Origin: a virus
Lineage: Duplodnaviria; Caudoviricetes
Reading direction: 5' to 3' (one strand)
Virus record (IMG/VR): IMGVR_UViG_3300027851_000046
Location: 1 to 46,995 of that record
Length of the DNA: 46,995 nt
Part shown: positions 1 through 46,995 of the stretch, piece by piece
Numbering within the stretch: position 1 is the stretch's first letter
How the letters are laid out: each line of letters begins with the position of its first letter
Notes under the pieces: generated by a model
Told to the model about the DNA's origin: nothing
The model's database searches: none
Seen by the model: only the letters and a program-made list of their open reading frames with translations
Program-made: the position numbers and the translations under genes

Positions 1-238
1 GGAAAGGCTCAGCGGCGTGGAAGCGGTTGAACTCGGCCTTGGCTTCGGCCTCGACTTCACTGGTCGAAGCTTGATCCATGGCGTTGATCTTGGCGACCTC
101 TTGCAGCTTGAGCATGTCGGCCAGCTCGGCTTGCAGCTCCAACAGCTCAGCACCCTTGGCCTTGATGCGGTTCATCAGGTCAATTTCTTCCTGACTCAGA
201 TCACGATAACCCTTGATCTTGCGATGTTGGTTTTCCAT
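1..238 (-). CDS. acb2: Acb2 anti-CBASS protein, allele A (truncated by the window edge)
   Basis: Translates MENQHRKIKGYRDLSQEEIDLMNRIK...; second copy of 45104-45424; TAATG overlap with the upstream gene. Confidence 0.85.
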   Translation of the reverse strand, partial: MENQHRKIKGYRDLSQEEIDLMNRIKAKGAELLELQAELADMLKLQEVAKINAMDQASTSEVEAEAKAEFNRFHAAEPF

Positions 239-582
239 TATTTTTCCACCTTACCCAGCCCGCCCTCTTTGGCGTCGCCGGTCAGTTGAGGCAGTTGCTC
301 GGTGCCGGACTTGTTGCCTTTCTTGTCCTGAGCCTCAGCTTTGACCGAACGCTCTTGAGCGTGGGCAAACACAAAGCCGCCTTTGACCAGCTTGGAATCT
401 TTGAACTGCTCGCGCCAGGCGTCCCACAGGTCTTTCGGCACGTCATGGGTGATGCCGTGGCCAGTGCCCTGAATCAGGTTCTGGTTCCAGCCGTTGATTC
501 GGAACTCGGCTTCCTTGCCGCCCACCTGGGCCGACATAAGGATGCCATTCGGAAGTTTACAGCCGATTGTTACAGTGCTCAT
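238..582 (-). CDS. Conserved head-region protein downstream of the major capsid gene, allele A
   Basis: 114-aa ORF with GGAG RBS; preserved in both repeat copies with only a few residue changes. Confidence 0.75.
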   Translation of the reverse strand: MSTVTIGCKLPNGILMSAQVGGKEAEFRINGWNQNLIQGTGHGITHDVPKDLWDAWREQFKDSKLVKGGFVFAHAQERSVKAEAQDKKGNKSGTEQLPQLTGDAKEGGLGKVEK

Positions 583-597
583 TCGTTTCTCCAGCAG

Positions 598-620
598 TAA
601 AGGCGGGGCCGAAGCCCCGC
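598..620 (-). terminator. Intrinsic terminator-like hairpin after the major capsid gene
   Basis: GCGGGGC-TTCG-GCCCCGC followed by CTTT; hairpin identical in copy B although the flanks differ. Confidence 0.65.
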
Positions 621-626
621 GCTATG

Positions 627-1631
627 TTAGGTCAGAATCAGACTGGCGACCATCAGAGGGCGATAGATGATCGCGCCAACGGTGCCTTGGCTGCGCTTCT
701 GCTGCCAGCTCGACAGACCCAGCACCATCGGATGCACGCGCATCTTTTCGGTGAAGGTCGGCTCAATGGTGCGAACTCCTTCGTACTCGTCGGCGATCAT
801 GTACACCAATTCGCCGGCAGGGGTGGACAGTTCCGGCGCGGTCTCAATGCGCAGGTTCGGGAAGTTTTTCTTGAGCTGATCAACCACGTTGACGTTGTAC
901 TGGTTGGTTTTCAGCAGGTTCACTTCGTTCTGCGGCGACAGCAGCAGTACACCGGCGAAGTCGCGGTCGATCAGGCCCTTGGTTTGACCGACCAAGCGGC
1001 CATACAGCGCACCCTGAACCGAGGCAAACACCTGGTCAGCAGTCAGCGCGTCCCAATCAGAACCCGGCAGCGAAGCCGACAGCGACGGATCGTTCAGGAT
1101 GCCGTAGTTTTGCAGGCCGGATACGCCGTAGAAATACGACTTGTTCTGAAACTTGTTCAGCACCAGCGCGGCAGCGATCTGCTTACGGGCTACCCAGTCC
1201 AGCTTAGCGGCACCGGCACGCTCTACCTCACGCTCGCCCACTTCGACGATGGTCTGGTAGTGGTACGGCTGGCGGTTTTCCCAGTTGACGTTCGCGCCCG
1301 ACATGCCGTTGGTGCCGAAGTCGTCATAACTCGACACTTCACCAGTCGATTCTGCAATCGGGAATTGCAGGTTATCGTCAACCCAGGTGCCTTTCTTGGT
1401 CTCTCCGAAGATCTGCGCGGCCTTCATCGGCTCAACAGCGATCTCGATGACGCGCGGATCGACGTAAGTGGTGAATAAGGCCAGGATGCCGGCGTTCGGG
1501 GCGGTGATCAGGTCGGCGTCGTTGGCAACGGTGGCGCGAGCCATGTTGTCCAGCTCTCGCGGCTGAAAACCAGTTTGATACACGATGCCCGCATCTTGAG
1601 CGAGCGCGTGAAAGTTCAGTTTCTCAGACAT
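627..1631 (-). CDS. Major capsid protein (DUF2184-like), allele A
   Basis: 334 aa; follows the protease and decoration genes; C-terminal G(T)VGAIIYRP motif typical of this capsid family. Confidence 0.88.
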   Translation of the reverse strand: MSEKLNFHALAQDAGIVYQTGFQPRELDNMARATVANDADLITAPNAGILALFTTYVDPRVIEIAVEPMKAAQIFGETKKGTWVDDNLQFPIAESTGEVSSYDDFGTNGMSGANVNWENRQPYHYQTIVEVGEREVERAGAAKLDWVARKQIAAALVLNKFQNKSYFYGVSGLQNYGILNDPSLSASLPGSDWDALTADQVFASVQGALYGRLVGQTKGLIDRDFAGVLLLSPQNEVNLLKTNQYNVNVVDQLKKNFPNLRIETAPELSTPAGELVYMIADEYEGVRTIEPTFTEKMRVHPMVLGLSSWQQKRSQGTVGAIIYRPLMVASLILT

Positions 1632-1642
1632 TTGCGCGCTCC

Positions 1643-2131
1643 TTAGATAGACGCTTTGGTGATTTTGACCAGCTCGCCGGCGGTCTTGGCTTCTGCGGCC
1701 TTGAACCCGGTAGCAATATTAGGAACTGGTGTGACAGCGCCATTATCGGCAGCAAGAGTAGGCGCGCCCGTTACAGGGTCCGCATACACGGCAGCGCCAA
1801 CAGTGGAGTCGCCGCCCAGCACGCAATAGAAATCGCCATCGGTGAACAGGACGGTCTCGCGGCCAGCCGGGACAACCATGCTAGCAGCCTGACCCAGCGG
1901 GACAATGGCTTGGTTGTTGCGGTGAACGAAGCCCACGCGGCGGCCAGCAGCGTTAGCTGGGTACACCAGGCCGGTAGCCAGGTCGGCAAACGCGAAGTAC
2001 CCGACAGTGATTGCGGCGGCAGTGCGCAGCGAGCCTTCTCCGGCCAGCATTGCATTGCGCGGGTTGGTAGATGCGAAGTCACCGGCAACGGCACGGGACG
2101 GATCGCGGTTCAGAGTCTGTTGAAATGCCAT
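1643..2131 (-). CDS. Head decoration/cement protein
   Basis: 162 aa, Ala/Gly/Val-rich, AGDFASTNP motif, between the protease and capsid genes. Confidence 0.75.
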   Translation of the reverse strand: MAFQQTLNRDPSRAVAGDFASTNPRNAMLAGEGSLRTAAAITVGYFAFADLATGLVYPANAAGRRVGFVHRNNQAIVPLGQAASMVVPAGRETVLFTDGDFYCVLGGDSTVGAAVYADPVTGAPTLAADNGAVTPVPNIATGFKAAEAKTAGELVKITKASI

Positions 2132-9109: not shown

Positions 9110-9140
9110 TGACTGACCTCGGTCGTCTATTTTCTAAATG

Positions 9141-9212
9141 CTGGCACGCCCGGACTCGAACCGGGAACCTCGGAGTTAACAGCTCCGCGCACTACCATTG
9201 TGCTACATGCCA
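9141..9212 (-). tRNA. tRNA-Asn (GTT), CCA not encoded
   Basis: Acceptor TGGCATG/CGTGCCA, anticodon arm CGGAG-CTGTTAA-CTCCG, T arm CCCGG-TTCGAGT-CCGGG. Confidence 0.9.
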
Positions 9213-9216
9213 AAAC

Positions 9217-9291
9217 TGGTGCCCATCCTAGGACTTGAACCTAGCTCTGCCGCTTACAAGGCGGCTGCATCGCCATCTATGCTTGACGGGC
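9217..9291 (-). tRNA. tRNA-Thr (TGT)
   Basis: Acceptor GCCCGTC/GATGGGC-ACCA, anticodon arm GCCGC-CTTGTAA-GCGGC, T arm CTAGG-TTCAAGT-CCTAG. Confidence 0.9.
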
Positions 9292-9564: not shown

Positions 9565-9593
9565 ATTATACAGCGCTATTTAGTGGGGCGCGA
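9565..9593 (-). promoter_or_regulatory. Candidate promoter for the tRNA/late region
   Basis: Perfect TATAAT (9570-9565) with a weak -35; followed by a hairpin-rich non-coding leader. Confidence 0.45.
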
Positions 9594-10379
9594 AACGAAT
9601 TTAATCTCCGTATTGTCGTTTACTGCCCACGAGCTACTGCCATCAAACTCAATAACCCAATGACCTTTCGCAATGAACGAATGAAGAGTCAGTTTTCCTA
9701 CCATCCCTTTACGGTCTCTCCATCCATAATTGTCACTATGCACAATCTCAACTTCCATGCCTTCGCGCCATGTTGACTGGTCTTTTGGATCAGGCAGCTC
9801 TACCGCTTCCCGCTTGATCAGCTTAAACCCTTCATCGGCTAGCCTCTGAATCAGACTTGCGCGCTCTTCCTCCAGCGCTTCGACGGCGCGGTCGATTTCC
9901 GTCACACGGTCGCGCCATTGCAGCGGGCCGTCAACTGGTGCCGTCACTTCTGGAGTTTCGGAATCTACCGACTCATTCACGTGATAGGCCATCACGTCGA
10001 AATGATTCCCGGTGTGAATCCAATGCAGATTCTCTGAGAACTTGCCCATAACCACTTCACCAGAGCGTAGGCGCGCATCCACCAGGGTGCACAAGTCGAA
10101 CGGATTTTTGCGCCCGCGATGCCGAATCCACCCCTGCGCATTGGCCTTTTGCTTGCTCATCTTGGCGCGTTCGGCTTCCCATTGGGGGCGTGTGACTATG
10201 GCTATCATCCAATCATCTGCAAGCGTATAGCGCTCAAATGTATGCCTTACATGATCACCTATTCCAGGCAAATGCAGTGATCCTTCAGATGCTTGACCTA
10301 CATCCAGAAAACCCTCCGGCCATTCCTTCAGCTCTACCGCCAGAATCTCGACCAGTTTCTTGCCTGATTGCTTTTTCAT
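9576..10379 (-). CDS. Mosaic hypothetical phage protein
   Basis: 267 aa; ATGA overlap with aca1; central coiled coil and an SH3-like C-terminus by pattern only. Confidence 0.65.
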   Translation of the reverse strand: MKKQSGKKLVEILAVELKEWPEGFLDVGQASEGSLHLPGIGDHVRHTFERYTLADDWMIAIVTRPQWEAERAKMSKQKANAQGWIRHRGRKNPFDLCTLVDARLRSGEVVMGKFSENLHWIHTGNHFDVMAYHVNESVDSETPEVTAPVDGPLQWRDRVTEIDRAVEALEEERASLIQRLADEGFKLIKREAVELPDPKDQSTWREGMEVEIVHSDNYGWRDRKGMVGKLTLHSFIAKGHWVIEFDGSSSWAVNDNTEIKFVSRPTK

Positions 10380-10600
10380 TTGATCTCTCCAGATTCATGC
10401 GCCAGGCATTCCAGCGCAAATTGAACCAAGTATGGCGCGGGCCTGTATCCGTCCGATTTAGGGTCAGTCAGGTAATACCTCATCATGCGCGCAGATATTC
10501 CGATTGTGCCCGCCGCCCTATTCTGGCTAATCCCAGCTTGCTCAAGCAGCCCGCGCAGATAGCGCGGGTCTGGGTTGTGGCGGGAGGAGTCGGGCCTCAC
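10376..10600 (-). CDS. aca1: Anti-CRISPR-associated HTH repressor Aca1
   Basis: PD.S.H.PDPRYLRGLL..AGISQ.RAA...G.S.R.MRYYL.....GYRPAPY.VQFALECLA matches the Pseudomonas phage Aca1 sequence as I recall it. Confidence 0.93.
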   Translation of the reverse strand: MRPDSSRHNPDPRYLRGLLEQAGISQNRAAGTIGISARMMRYYLTDPKSDGYRPAPYLVQFALECLAHESGEIK

Positions 10601-10854
10601 CAGATACGCTCTAGAACTTGAACCGCATACTGATAGTCGAGGCTATCGCGGCCTACGTCGGCATCTTGGTCGTCGCTCTCCAGGCGCAGAACGCTGCCCA
10701 TGCTGTCAGTCTGGCCAACCTCGATTTCGGCATTGGGGAATGTCTTGGCCAGCGCTTCGGTGGCGAGCTTGCGCCATTCGGCGTGATCCTGTTCGGTGGC
10801 GTCATTGCCAATGTTCAATTCGCCGCTGGTGATTATGATTTTGGTGATGGCCAT
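10597..10854 (-). CDS. Candidate anti-CRISPR/anti-defence protein (acidic, 85 aa)
   Basis: Only gene between the Aca1-operator promoter and aca1; GTGA coupling; 17 D/E versus 7 K/R. Confidence 0.75.
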   Translation of the reverse strand: MAITKIIITSGELNIGNDATEQDHAEWRKLATEALAKTFPNAEIEVGQTDSMGSVLRLESDDQDADVGRDSLDYQYAVQVLERIW

Positions 10855-10900
10855 GGCTGTTGTCCTCTTTTCGCCTCGCCGTTGTGGCTGGCATGTGCGT

Positions 10901-10929
10901 AATATAGGCAGCCACTGCCTATATGTAAA
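10901..10929 (-). promoter_or_regulatory. acr-type promoter with Aca1 operator
   Basis: TTTACA-N17-TATATT; perfect 10-bp inverted repeat ATATAGGCAG-N3-CTGCCTATAT (10902-10924) with core TAGGCA-N5-TGCCTA. Confidence 0.85.
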
Positions 10930-10937
10930 GCACTATT

Positions 10938-11501
10938 TTATCCGTTCGTCGCCTTTAGCTCTCGCGTCTTCGCCCTGTATTCCTTTGCGATCTGCTGTAG
11001 ATCGTCGATGGTGTAGCGCTTAGGCTCATGCTTCCCTTCCAACCATTCAACTGCATCAGCTCCAATCCTGCGCAATAGCTCTGCCCTGTAGTTCACGATG
11101 TCGCCGCTTTTGTGGTTGTTGCATGGAGCGCACTGCTTCCAGGCGTTCAGCGGCTCATATCGCAGCTCAGGGCTTCCGGCGACGGTTCTATAATGCCCGG
11201 CGTGGTATTGCCCCTGGTGATGCCTGCCGCAGCTAACGCATGGCAAATCACGGTCGCGCTCTCTTACCCATGCGTTGAATGCGGTTTGCGCCTCCCTGGC
11301 GTAGTCTGCTCGCGTTTTCAGTCTCTCCCGCGCCCGCCTTGTCTGCTTGCGTTCTTCCTTGGCTAGCTGCGCCTCCTTACGCTCTCTCGCCTGCCTGGCC
11401 ATCAGTAGGCCGCACGCAGCCGAGCACACTACCTGCATGCTGTTATTCGGCTGGAATGACTCACGACAGGCGCGGCACTTCTTGGGCTTTAGGGGCTTCA
11501 T
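10938..11501 (-). CDS. ninG: NinG/Rap recombination endonuclease
   Basis: KKCRAC...VCSAAC; RERDRDLPCVSCGR...HAGHYRT...N.WKQC.PCN.HKSG; start moved to MKPLKP. Confidence 0.9.
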   Translation of the reverse strand: MKPLKPKKCRACRESFQPNNSMQVVCSAACGLLMARQARERKEAQLAKEERKQTRRARERLKTRADYAREAQTAFNAWVRERDRDLPCVSCGRHHQGQYHAGHYRTVAGSPELRYEPLNAWKQCAPCNNHKSGDIVNYRAELLRRIGADAVEWLEGKHEPKRYTIDDLQQIAKEYRAKTRELKATNG

Positions 11502-11659
11502 GCTTTTCTCCGGCCTGATAGCGCGACTACAAACCAGAAAACAGGCCAAAGAATAGCGGCTCGAAAATGATTGACCCTTGATTTGAACTTCACTGTATGT
11601 AAAAGGGTATAAATTCCAGCGTAGCAGTAAAATATCAGCCATAAAATAGGATCATTCAT
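11498..11659 (-). CDS. Small AT-rich membrane protein (53 aa, not in the ORF track)
   Basis: MNDPILWLIFYCYAGIYTLL...AILWPVFWFVVALSGRRKA; ATGA overlaps at both ends. Confidence 0.6.
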   Translation of the reverse strand: MNDPILWLIFYCYAGIYTLLHTVKFKSRVNHFRAAILWPVFWFVVALSGRRKA

Positions 11660-12129
11660 GCTGGCGCACCCTCACTCAAAATATCGTCAAACACAACGCC
11701 ATTCTGCTCAAACTCGGCAACGATCTGCTCAATGTAGACCGCTCCCTGCGCCCGGTCGAATAGGCGTGTCACTGGGAAGCCGTCCGGCCCAAATAAAGCG
11801 CACGGCCCCATAAGTTCCAACTTAGTCTCGTAGGTCAGATTGAGAAACGATACATTCCACCCGTGCCGAAATTCCTCGCACGCCTTGCGCATGATTGGAA
11901 CGCCGATGTGAAGCTTGCACCACTTGCGCACGTCTTCCACGTCGCCCATCTGCGTCATCTGCGCTATACGCTGGTACATGGCGAAGAACATCGCGTTCTG
12001 GTCTAGCGTTCTGTCTTTGCCGGGGCGCAAGCTCACGACAACGTACTTCTTTTCGCGGTACAGCTCAGTAAGGCGCTTGATTGCCTCACTGAGCCGCGCT
12101 GGGCTGTTGACTGCGATTTTCTCAGCCAT
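11656..12129 (-). CDS. NinB/Orf-like protein
   Basis: RTLDQNA..FAMY..IA motif; upstream of ninG. Confidence 0.6.
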   Translation of the reverse strand: MAEKIAVNSPARLSEAIKRLTELYREKKYVVVSLRPGKDRTLDQNAMFFAMYQRIAQMTQMGDVEDVRKWCKLHIGVPIMRKACEEFRHGWNVSFLNLTYETKLELMGPCALFGPDGFPVTRLFDRAQGAVYIEQIVAEFEQNGVVFDDILSEGAPA

Positions 12130-15153: not shown

Positions 15154-15891
15154 CTACCCTGCTAAAAAATTGAATGCTGTTGCCGCCACTCGTGGAACCT
15201 GGCCATTTCCAATGGCTTTAAGTCTGTCCACCCTAAAGGCCACCCCATTATCAATTCGACCCATTCCGGCATCAGACGGCCACCCACGACCTGAGGGAGG
15301 CAATCCCCCGCCTTGCTTCCAGTTCGCTCCAGCCTGCTTTTGCCAGGAGACCTGTAGTCTCTCCTGACCGGAGTGGGCAACAATCCATATCCTGTCTCTT
15401 GGATGGGGCGCGCCAAGGTTGGATGCTGATATACAGCACCACTGCGCGTCATACCCCATTTCGGCAAGGTCACTGACGACCACTGCAAGTCCTCTGGAAA
15501 TAAGGAGAGGTGAATTTTCCACGAAGACGAACCGAGGTCGTACCTCACCGATGATTCGCGCCATTTCTCGCCACAGCCCGGAGCGCTCCCCGTCGATTCC
15601 TGCGCCCTTTCCAGCGGCGGATATGTCCTGACAAGGGAAGCCTCCAGAAACCACGTCAACAATGCCTCTCCACGGCTTTCCGTCAAAACTGCACACGTCA
15701 GACCAAATCGGGAAAGCTGGGAGGGCTCCATCGTTTTGTCGTTGCGCCAGAACTTGTGCTGCGTAGGCATCACGCTCAACTGCGCAGACTGTTCGCCAGC
15801 CAAGGAGGTGTCCGCCGAGGATTCCGCCGCCTGCGCCTGCGAAAAGTGCGAGTTCTCGTAATCCTGTATTAGTGCTCTGCTGAATATCCAT
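15154..15891 (-). CDS. C5-cytosine DNA methyltransferase, alpha polypeptide (lacks motif IX)
   Basis: Motif I LFAGAGG, II VE, IV GGFPCQD, VI FVENS, VIII PHPRDRIWIV, X LKAIGNGQVP. Confidence 0.9.
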   Translation of the reverse strand: MDIQQSTNTGLRELALFAGAGGGILGGHLLGWRTVCAVERDAYAAQVLAQRQNDGALPAFPIWSDVCSFDGKPWRGIVDVVSGGFPCQDISAAGKGAGIDGERSGLWREMARIIGEVRPRFVFVENSPLLISRGLAVVVSDLAEMGYDAQWCCISASNLGAPHPRDRIWIVAHSGQERLQVSWQKQAGANWKQGGGLPPSGRGWPSDAGMGRIDNGVAFRVDRLKAIGNGQVPRVAATAFNFLAG

Positions 15892-15896
15892 GACAT
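15162..15896 (-). CDS. C5 methyltransferase beta polypeptide in an overlapping frame (putative target-recognition segment and motif IX)
   Basis: 244 aa open across the whole alpha gene; LLPTP..RD and RLMPEWVELIMGWPLGWT; TAATG coupling and GGAG RBS. Confidence 0.8.
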   Translation of the reverse strand: MSWIFSRALIQDYENSHFSQAQAAESSADTSLAGEQSAQLSVMPTQHKFWRNDKTMEPSQLSRFGLTCAVLTESRGEALLTWFLEASLVRTYPPLERAQESTGSAPGCGEKWRESSVRYDLGSSSWKIHLSLFPEDLQWSSVTLPKWGMTRSGAVYQHPTLARPIQETGYGLLPTPVRRDYRSPGKSRLERTGSKAGDCLPQVVGGRLMPEWVELIMGWPLGWTDLKPLEMARFHEWRQQHSIF

Positions 15897-16024
15897 TACT
15901 CAACTCCAATTGCTTGTGGCCAAATGCTAAGCACGCACTCAAGCGCCTCAGCGTGTGTCAGTGGGATGGTGGATACCATGGCGAACCGATAGCCTGGTAG
16001 CGTCACCTGCCAGCAGGTTTTCAC
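15896..16024 (-). CDS. Small hypothetical protein (42 aa, not in the ORF track)
   Basis: MKTCWQVTLPGYRFAMVS...IWPQAIGVE; GTGA overlap with dnaB and TAATG overlap with the beta ORF. Confidence 0.6.
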   Translation of the reverse strand: MKTCWQVTLPGYRFAMVSTIPLTHAEALECVLSIWPQAIGVE

Positions 16025-45103: not shown

Positions 45104-45424
45104 TTAGCACTCAGATGGCTGGGCTACGGCACGCACCAGCGCCATGATGCCAGTCTGGATGTCGGTCTTTCCGATGGCCGACCAGCGGAAAGGCTCAGCG
45201 GCGTGGAAGCGGTTGAACTCGGCCTTGGCTTCGGCCTCGACTTCACTGGTCGAAGCTTGATCCATGGCGTTGATCTTGGCGACCTCTTGCAGCTTGAGCA
45301 GGTCGGCCAGTTCGGCTTGCAGCTCCAACAGCTCAGCACCCTTGGCCTTGATGCGGTTCATCAGGTCAATTTCTTCCTGACTCAGCTCACGATAACCCTT
45401 GATCTTGCGATGTTGGTTTTCCAT
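45104..45424 (-). CDS. acb2: Acb2 cyclic-nucleotide sponge (anti-CBASS), allele B
   Basis: M.NQH.KIKGYR.LSQEEID.MNR.K...AEP.RW.AIGKTDIQTG.MA..RA.AQP matches Pseudomonas phage Acb2 as I recall it; Y11 and K26 in register. Confidence 0.9.
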   Translation of the reverse strand: MENQHRKIKGYRELSQEEIDLMNRIKAKGAELLELQAELADLLKLQEVAKINAMDQASTSEVEAEAKAEFNRFHAAEPFRWSAIGKTDIQTGIMALVRAVAQPSEC

Positions 45425-45768
45425 TATTTTTCCACCTTACCCAGACCGCCCTCTTTGGCGTCGCCGGTCAGTTGCGGCAGTTGCTCGGTGCCGGACTTGT
45501 TGCCTTTCTTCTCGTTCGCCTCGGCCTTAACCGAGCGCTCCTGAGCATGGGCAAACACAAAGCCGCCCTTGACCAGCTTGGAGTCCTTGAACTTCTCGCG
45601 CCAGGCGTCCCACAGGTCTTTTGGCACGTCGTGGGTGATGCCGTGGCCAGTGCCTTGGATCAGATTCTGGTTCCAGCCGTTGATTCGGTACTCGACTTCC
45701 TTTCCGCCCACCTGTGCGGACATAAGAACGCCGTTCGGGAGTTTGCAGCCGATTGTCACAGTGCTCAT
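45424..45768 (-). CDS. Conserved head-region protein, allele B
   Basis: 114 aa, near-identical to 238-582. Confidence 0.75.
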   Translation of the reverse strand: MSTVTIGCKLPNGVLMSAQVGGKEVEYRINGWNQNLIQGTGHGITHDVPKDLWDAWREKFKDSKLVKGGFVFAHAQERSVKAEANEKKGNKSGTEQLPQLTGDAKEGGLGKVEK

Positions 45769-45783
45769 AAATTCTCCAGTAGT

Positions 45784-45805
45784 AAAGGCGGGGCCGAAGC
45801 CCCGC
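45784..45805 (-). terminator. Terminator-like hairpin after the major capsid gene, copy B
   Basis: Same TTCG hairpin as 598-620. Confidence 0.65.
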
Positions 45806-45812
45806 TAATAGT

Positions 45813-46817
45813 TTAGGTCAGGATCAGGCTGGCGACCATCAGCGGGCGATAGATAATCGCGCCGACGGTGCCCTGGCTGCGCTTCTGCTGCCAGCTCGAC
45901 AGACCCAGAACCATCGGATGCACGCGCATCTTTTCGGTGAAGGTCGGCTCGATGGTGCGGACGCCTTCGTACTCCTCGACAATGAGGTACACCAGCTCAC
46001 CGGCTGCGGTGGACATTTCCGGCGCAGTCTCAATGCGCATGTTCGGGAAGTTCTTCTTGAGCTGATCAACCACGTTCACGTTGTACTGGTTGGTCTTCAG
46101 CAGGTTCACTTCGTTAGCCGGGGACAGCAGAAGAACCATGCGTGCGTCACGGTCAACCAAGCCCTTGGTCTGGCCGATAAGGCGACCGTACAGCGCGCCC
46201 TGAACCGAAGCAAACACCTGATCAGCGGTCAGCAGATCCCAGTCAGCACCAGGCTGCGAAGCCGACAGCGACGGGTCGTTCAGCAGGCCATAGTTGGCCA
46301 GACCGGAAACGCCGTTGAAGTAGCTCTTGTTCTGAAACTTGTTCAGCACCAGAGCGGCAGCGATCTGCTTGCGGGCTACCCAATCCAGTTTGGCGGCACC
46401 GGCACGCTCTACCTCACGCTCGCCGACTTCGACGATGGTCTGGTAGTGGTAAGGCTGGCGGTTTTCCCAGTTGACGTTCGCACCGGACATACCGTTGGTG
46501 CCGAAGTCGTCATAGCTGGAAACTTCACCAGTCGATTCTGCAATCGGGAATTGCAAGTTATCGTCAACCCAGGTGCCCTTCTTGGTCTCGCCGAAAATCT
46601 GCGCGGCCTTCATCGGCTCTACAGCGATCTCGATGACGCGCGGGTCAACGTAGGTGGTGAACATGGCCAGGATGCCGGCGTTCGGTGCGGTGATCAGGTC
46701 GGCGTCGTTGGCAACGGTGGCGCGAGCCATGTTATCCAGCTCTCGCGGCTGAAAACCAGTTTGATACACGATACCCGCGTCATTGGCGAGCGCGTGAAAG
46801 TTCAGTTTCTCAGACAT
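45813..46817 (-). CDS. Major capsid protein, allele B
   Basis: 334 aa; 20 residue differences from allele A by manual comparison. Confidence 0.88.
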   Translation of the reverse strand: MSEKLNFHALANDAGIVYQTGFQPRELDNMARATVANDADLITAPNAGILAMFTTYVDPRVIEIAVEPMKAAQIFGETKKGTWVDDNLQFPIAESTGEVSSYDDFGTNGMSGANVNWENRQPYHYQTIVEVGEREVERAGAAKLDWVARKQIAAALVLNKFQNKSYFNGVSGLANYGLLNDPSLSASQPGADWDLLTADQVFASVQGALYGRLIGQTKGLVDRDARMVLLLSPANEVNLLKTNQYNVNVVDQLKKNFPNMRIETAPEMSTAAGELVYLIVEEYEGVRTIEPTFTEKMRVHPMVLGLSSWQQKRSQGTVGAIIYRPLMVASLILT

Positions 46818-46828
46818 TTGCGCGCTCC

Positions 46829-46995
46829 TTAGATAGACGCTTTGGTGATTTTGACCAGCTCGCCGGCGGTCTTAGCCTCGGCAGCGATGAAGCCGGTAGC
46901 AATATTAGGAACTGGTGTGACAGCGCCATTATCGGCAGCAAGAGTAGGCGCGCCCGTTACAGGGTCCGCATACACGGCAGCGCCAACAGTGGAGT
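46829..46995 (-). CDS. Head decoration protein, 3' part, allele B (truncated by the window edge)
   Basis: Copy of 1643-1809 with GFIAAE in place of GFKAAE. Confidence 0.75.
   Translation of the reverse strand, partial: STVGAAVYADPVTGAPTLAADNGAVTPVPNIATGFIAAEAKTAGELVKITKASI

Follow-up and report, generated by a model that had tools for sequence, protein, structure and literature searches.

The window, by which we mean the whole 46,995-nt stretch of DNA analysed here, is a tailed-phage genome of about 45 kb in which terminase, portal, sheath, DnaB, Erf and nin genes are present and no tyrosine integrase was detected. P. aeruginosa cannot be assumed as the host of this phage, since its GC content is 56% and the sequencing runs that hold at least half of the stretch are water metagenomes. 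The first and last 1.8 kb of the window (1-1809 and 45187-46995) match at only 91.5% identity and duplicate the major head gene; the probable cause is an overlap, in the assembly, between two strain variants. On the minus strand lies a two-gene cassette that a sequence-only reading of this DNA had described as an acr-aca1 operon, and the layout given there holds. The cassette sits directly after ninG (10938-11498, minus strand; PF05766, E 1.4e-64), which forms its upstream flank and adjoins the locus together with ninB. It begins with a promoter that contains a perfect inverted repeat, continues through an acidic 85-aa ORF (10597-10854, minus strand; 17 D/E versus 7 K/R, pI 4.20, net charge -10), and ends with a coupled aca1 homologue (10376-10600, minus strand, 74 aa) whose GTG start overlaps the stop of the ORF by 4 nt. 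What that reading overlooked is a 267-aa ORF (9576-10379, minus strand) whose ATG is overlapped by the aca1 stop and to which no function was assigned. It is a resident phage gene that is possibly co-transcribed with the cassette; a search of 9600-12000 revealed no terminator on the minus strand, and a homologue likewise lies 3' of an Aca1-like gene in a related contig (L105). Genes for tRNA-Asn and tRNA-Thr (9140-9291) separate the 267-aa ORF from an HNH gene.

The promoter is of the sigma70 type (TTTACA-N17-TATATT, 10901-10929, minus strand), with 10 of 12 matches, and is expected to be active. The stretch 9600-12000 holds no second promoter-like site; the match alone is not above chance, since shuffled sequences average 1.8 such sites and one was found. 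Between the -35 and -10 hexamers lies a predicted Aca1-type operator (10902-10924), a perfect inverted repeat with 10-bp arms (10902-10911 and 10915-10924) and a 3-nt gap. It is the only perfect repeat in the whole window with arms of at least 10 bp and a gap of at most 6, where 20 Markov-simulated sequences lead one to expect 0.25 per 47 kb, and its TAGGCA-N5-TGCCTA core occurs once in the window, at 10905. The same core and the same order of promoter with operator, acr and then aca1 are found in the acrIF1-aca1 operon of phage JBD30 (Aca1 structures PDB 7C0G, 7FA3 and 7VJM). JBD30 differs in having two operators, whereas the window has one, and the half-site in the window, GGCAG, agrees with JBD30 GGCAC at four of five bases, the inner C being replaced by G in both arms. 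The phages themselves also differ, JBD30 being Mu-like and the window phage having a tail sheath with lambda-like replication and nin genes.

The aca1 product is homologous to JBD30 Aca1 (PDB 7C0G, E 1.4e-28, residues 2-69) and keeps the equivalents of R22, S31, Q32, S42, R44, R47, Y48, Y49 and R59, while R33 is changed to N and V45 to M. In JBD30 Aca1, R44, R47, Y48 and R59 are reported to read bases and S42 and Y49 to contact phosphate, and the specificity of the operator is dominated by two G and an A, with the C bases of lesser weight (PMC8633003); all of these base-reading and phosphate-contacting residues are present in the window protein. Because the main base-reading residues are intact and both G and the A are retained in the operator, it is likely that Aca1 represses the promoter through the predicted operator. 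The operator and the recognition helix of Aca1 apparently co-vary: V45 goes with GGCAC in JBD30 and M with GGCAG in the window (10902-10924), an A in the recognition helix goes with GGAAC-N3-GTTCC upstream of the gene in L004, L005, L006 and L015, and in L105 (1985-2066) a much changed recognition helix accompanies another imperfect palindrome. Ahead of the ribosome-binding site, the 5' UTR holds a hairpin of 6 bp in two stems (10873-10892, minus strand). It is kept in eight aligned loci, with 95% of cells paired over seven distinct rows and a folding z of -0.8, and these seven rows show no covariation. RNA binding by Aca proteins is reportedly the subject of one paper; a literature search for such binding found no paper.

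The 85-aa ORF is a real coding sequence under constraint, since the differences that separate it from nine related loci concentrate at codon position 3 (43-46, against 11-13 at position 2, or about fourfold). Entries for the protein exist in UniRef and, with the exact sequence, in NCBI nr, and the ORF is barely covered in RNA runs, where contigs only were searched. In standard libraries, the best Pfam match was DUF3889 (E 0.027, below the cut-off), the best PHROGs match had an E of 0.14, NCBIfam returned nothing, and the best match among PDB sequences had an E of 0.59. Profile matches to GyrB (PDB, E 0.045) were judged to be chance. Neither the 50,697 phage records nor the 72,556 plasmid records searched by tblastn gave a match to the ORF.

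A single-sequence search with the ORF recovered 11 clusters at 66-98% identity. When a profile of 12 close relatives was searched against 1.84 billion representatives, five matches were obtained at E <= 0.001, among them a 94-aa protein (P0014, E 1.2e-5) whose 90% cluster contains WP_003294373.1 (P0021), the accession given for AcrIC7 of P. stutzeri (León et al. 2021, PMC7913775). Compared by eye, the letters of WP_003294373.1 are those of the AcrIC7 row in Data S1 of Duan 2024 (PMC10799925). BLASTP aligns it with the ORF at 23 of 62 identical positions (37%, E 2e-11), over residues 3-63 of 85, and comparison of the ORF with AcrIC7 profile to profile gives a probability of 97% (E 5e-11). An HMM made from 15 long AcrIC7 sequences alone, run over 908 window frames, ranked the ORF first at E 2.8e-10, with the next frame at 2.4. 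In neither direction did any of 5000 shuffles score as high as the real sequence, and acidity therefore does not account for the match to AcrIC7. The homology to WP_003294373.1 thus held in the reciprocal as well as the shuffle controls, and the ORF also has two further marks of the family, being a small, strongly acidic protein and lying beside an aca gene on a mobile element, here a phage genome. Judged by its sequence, the gene belongs to the AcrIC7 family as a divergent member and does not found a new Acr family. The sequence-only reading had held that the ORF resembles no named Acr and proposed a new anti-CRISPR. The resemblance had been missed; the acr-aca1 operon is supported and the guess at an anti-CRISPR strengthened, whereas the novelty is lost, a match to a named Acr being what that reading itself had said would remove it. 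The AcrIC7 family is easily missed and rediscovered as "new", because AcrIC7 matches no NCBIfam model and the ORF has no useful match in Pfam, PHROGs or NCBIfam. A tblastn search with AcrIC7Pst likewise found no match in the phage records (50,697).

A wider AcrIC7 profile gathered 54 clusters at E <= 0.01. In a tree of 30 rows, the window protein falls within an 11-row clade of 81-85 aa that is split from the long forms with support of 99/96 and has a long branch. A CxWxW tail closes most of the long forms, whereas short forms, including the window protein, end at the preceding tryptophan. By both alignment and tree, the ORF falls outside the long (Pst/Pci) clade, which we define here, in terms of our own rather than published ones, by a length of about 94 aa, the CxWxW tail and grouping with AcrIC7Pst. 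Nine acidic positions are kept across the short and long clades. Two 148-aa homologues in the long clade (P0067 and P0083) carry a C-terminal extension of about 60 residues and are possible fusions. Compared directly, the ORF is 37-39% identical to AcrIC7 (Pst/Pci) over the N-terminal 60-70 residues and has in common with it a pattern of TKI, G, D, L, FP-AEIE, DS and E-D, strong acidity, the predicted order of structural elements and the place of first gene after an aca-type promoter. AcrIC7 differs in its length (94 aa versus 85), in its CPWxW tail, in being more acidic (22 D/E and 5 K/R versus 17 and 7), and in its linkage to aca4 or aca10 rather than aca1. In addition, an acrIC6 neighbour is reported for AcrIC7, and none is present in the two-gene cassette of the window.

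The function of the family is best known from León et al. 2021, who report that AcrIC7Pst and AcrIC7Pci (P. citronellolis) inhibit both type I-C and type I-E, that AcrIC7Pst blocks CRISPRi, i.e. DNA binding by Cascade, in both types, and that phages expressing these Acrs, AcrIF2 excepted, had no activity against I-F (PMC7913775). The same study describes AcrIC7Pae, an aca1-adjacent homologue from P. aeruginosa with 37% identity, which inhibited I-E and not I-C; a CRISPRi readout is reported there for AcrIC7Pst, not for AcrIC7Pae. Specificity drift is thus real in this family, since two published clades already differ. AcrIC7Pae is like the window ORF in its stated 37% identity to AcrIC7Pst and its aca1 neighbour, and differs in coming from P. 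aeruginosa, which is not established as the host of the window phage. The 37% figure is not unique, as members of the short clade are 27-42% identical to AcrIC7Pst. The sequence of AcrIC7Pae was sought without success in the main text of the NAR article and of its bioRxiv preprint, in supplementary data of two further papers (PMC10799925, PMC9765179) and by full-text searches, and the main text of PMC12248084 does not mention AcrIC7. We conclude that the window gene probably belongs to the clade of AcrIC7Pae, and the window protein may be AcrIC7Pae itself, already tested.

The homology, layout, operator, conserved Aca1 residues and slot, taken together with the function of published relatives, make it likely that this AcrIC7-family gene in an Aca1-type operon inhibits type I-E by binding Cascade and blocking its binding to target DNA. 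Like AcrIC7Pae, the gene product is predicted to be inactive against I-C. Counting against the I-E reading are an alignment limited to residues 3-63 of 85, the long branch of the short clade, and the absence of aca1 from 5 of 11 short-clade loci. By analogy with published relatives, the strong promoter would fire on phage entry, Aca1 dimers would then bind the palindrome and shut the promoter down, and the acidic monomer would occupy the basic DNA-binding surface of Cascade.

The ORF product could contact Cascade in two ways. First, like other acidic Acrs, it may bind Cas8/Cas7 at the PAM and duplex site, and on balance we lean slightly towards this site. The PAM and duplex site is the target of AcrIF2-type mimics. 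Second, and more tentatively, the contact might be the Cas11 small subunit. This follows from AcrIE8.1, which binds Cas11 (PMC12883894) and reportedly has the fold of AcrIC7, the two being predicted to share it (Duan 2024, PMC10799925). Cas11 would fit because the family hits I-C and I-E, not I-F; Cas11 is described in I-C and I-E, I-F being without a cas11 gene (PMC10161043). AcrIE8.1, from Klebsiella, inhibits I-E, as is predicted for the ORF product, and differs in being about 63 aa long and made up of two helices and two strands, and PDB searches gave no sequence or fold match between AcrIE8.1 and the ORF.

Some room is left for another range, in which this AcrIC7-family Acr would inhibit both I-C and I-E, or another type I variant of an environmental Pseudomonadaceae host. 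AcrIC7Pst and AcrIC7Pci are dual inhibitors (PMC7913775), the ORF need not be the I-E-only homologue, and relatives of the ORF are present in P. paralcaligenes and a Pseudomonadaceae MAG. However, the only tested homologue at such a distance with an aca1 neighbour is reported to have lost I-C activity, and the short clade is without the C-terminal tail of the dual inhibitors, so that we regard another range as unlikely. In a survey of 401 Pseudomonadaceae genomes, four carried the family, one of them with a match to type I-E cas8e, and with only four genomes the CRISPR target is not inferable from this survey. In one genome (G245; L024 and L136), a type I-E cas operon shares a contig with the exact AcrIC7Pst gene. 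As a check, the exact AcrIC7Pst gene was seen in L019, and L020 has an 88% homologue of it behind the Aca10 operator as printed in PMC9410881.

Short-clade genes were found at 17 loci besides the window's own contig, or 11 distinct loci once six duplicates were removed. An aca1 gene lies directly 3' in six of these (L002, L004, L005, L006, L009 and L015) and is absent from the other five (L001, L003, L008, L010 and L011). In three of the latter (L001:1094-1713, L003:1710-2353 and L008:3001-3839), the short-clade gene lies in a cargo operon, and the gene after it is common to all three and not an aca gene; Zot is present in L001 and L003, which resemble filamentous phages, and no Zot was found in the fetched stretch of L008. 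These three homologues are candidate inovirus anti-CRISPRs, to judge from their genes and context. The presence of the short clade in filamentous-phage contigs is the single lead worth following because Roux 2019 reported no Acr activity among 10 inovirus candidates (PMC6813254).

That report can also be taken the other way. The short clade, while still in the Aca1 slot, might have drifted to another defence, as a general acidic DNA mimic acting against restriction or similar, or might have lost Acr activity altogether. Its long branch and replaced C-terminal helix would fit such drift, as would the other regulators at the five loci and the filamentous-phage-type cargo operons of three of them. 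On the other hand, the homologue at the same distance inhibited I-E (PMC7913775), the acidic core is kept in common with AcrIC7, and the coding sequence is constrained, all of which makes drift away from CRISPR improbable and favours the type I-E anti-CRISPR.

The slot between promoter and aca1 is exchangeable, and it contains different genes in other contigs. Two contigs of one run (X3) join the promoter to aca1 across the ORF, and in contig 11 of another (X2) the promoter is separated from the ORF by 256 extra letters (window 10843-10866), which would give room for a second cargo gene. In L105, a ninG homologue precedes a 75-aa ORF unlike that of the window, and an Aca1-like gene (53%) and a homologue of the 267-aa gene come next. 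These joins, the insertion and the different gene in L105 are our reasons for calling the slot exchangeable. Within the fetched flanks of 80 ninG-bearing loci, neither aca1 nor the 85-aa ORF was found, and these loci, only 60-68% identical, contained no exact empty site. The 75-aa ORF of L105 (2063-2290), between ninG and the Aca1-like gene, is acidic, has no Pfam or NCBIfam family and is a candidate Acr.

The fold of the ORF was modelled with confidence (pLDDT 88) as strand-helix-strand-strand-helix, and a low-confidence model of AcrIC7Pst (pLDDT 64.7) has the same order of elements; a fold search with the latter was uninformative, its best match (Z 7.7) being an unrelated fold. Structure prediction with Foldseek, which the sequence-only reading had proposed as a check, thus yielded a good model and no match at E <= 0.001 in PDB and BFVD. 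The best viral Foldseek match was an unnamed 87-aa protein (TM 0.59, E 1.3e-3), and no named Acr was among the 50 matches listed for each fold search. That reading had also called the pattern loosely DinI-like, which is borne out weakly by structure and not by sequence. DinI (PF06183; PDB 1GHH, 7YWA), a small acidic alpha/beta arrangement, is the top VIA-align match in its RecA-filament form (Z 5.4, rmsd 3.2, 68 residues aligned), and alignment with Atlas models from clusters labelled DinI gives TM 0.65-0.74. Foldseek gives DinI a TM of 0.44 (E 0.25), PF06183 matched none of 26 family members at E <= 0.1 nor the ORF at E <= 1, and none of the papers listed by a literature search on DinI and anti-CRISPR was evidently on such a link. 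Since the Z of 5.4 is tied with unrelated folds, lying within 1 of tautomerases, "DinI-like" describes a common arrangement, not membership. It is therefore very unlikely that the ORF acts on RecA filaments to tune the SOS response or recombination, well as its place beside ninB and ninG would fit, given that homology points to AcrIC7 and that the gene lies under an Aca1-type operator, a genomic control different from that of DinI.

The import of the locus is modest, since it adds a further member to the AcrIC7 family, within a standard Aca1 operon, and the protein has perhaps been tested before. As by-products, the family is widened to 54 clusters and extends into Zot-bearing filamentous-phage contigs, and the contrast between two clades makes the determinant of I-C versus I-E activity testable. 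A bolder and rather unlikely reading is that the short, tail-less clade is a distinct I-E-specific subfamily that binds Cas11, that loss of CxWxW explains the loss of I-C activity, and that the clade moved, together with its leader sequence, out of the Aca1 operons of tailed phages and into the filamentous phages of L001, L003 and L008. If so, an inovirus would encode an anti-CRISPR where the earlier survey found none in 10.

Several smaller observations were made at these loci and in the window. In L002, a 50-kb contig with an acr-aca1 pair, the promoter (2861-2960) is 84-91% identical to the cargo promoter of L001, L003 and L008, which suggests promoter exchange between phage types; no Aca1-type operator was seen at the L002 promoter. 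Within the window, two long overlapping ORFs of 262 and 244 aa (15154-15942 and 15162-15896) lie on one strand in different frames, the former being cytosine methyltransferase-like by eye. Finally, the promoters of L010 (2890-3723) and L011 (2890-3796) both contain a palindrome, GGTGCACCA-T-TGGTGCACC, and the gene found downstream is in neither case aca1: in L010 it encodes a 131-aa protein that matched no family, in L011 a Ros/MucR protein. Both proteins may be new Aca-like regulators.
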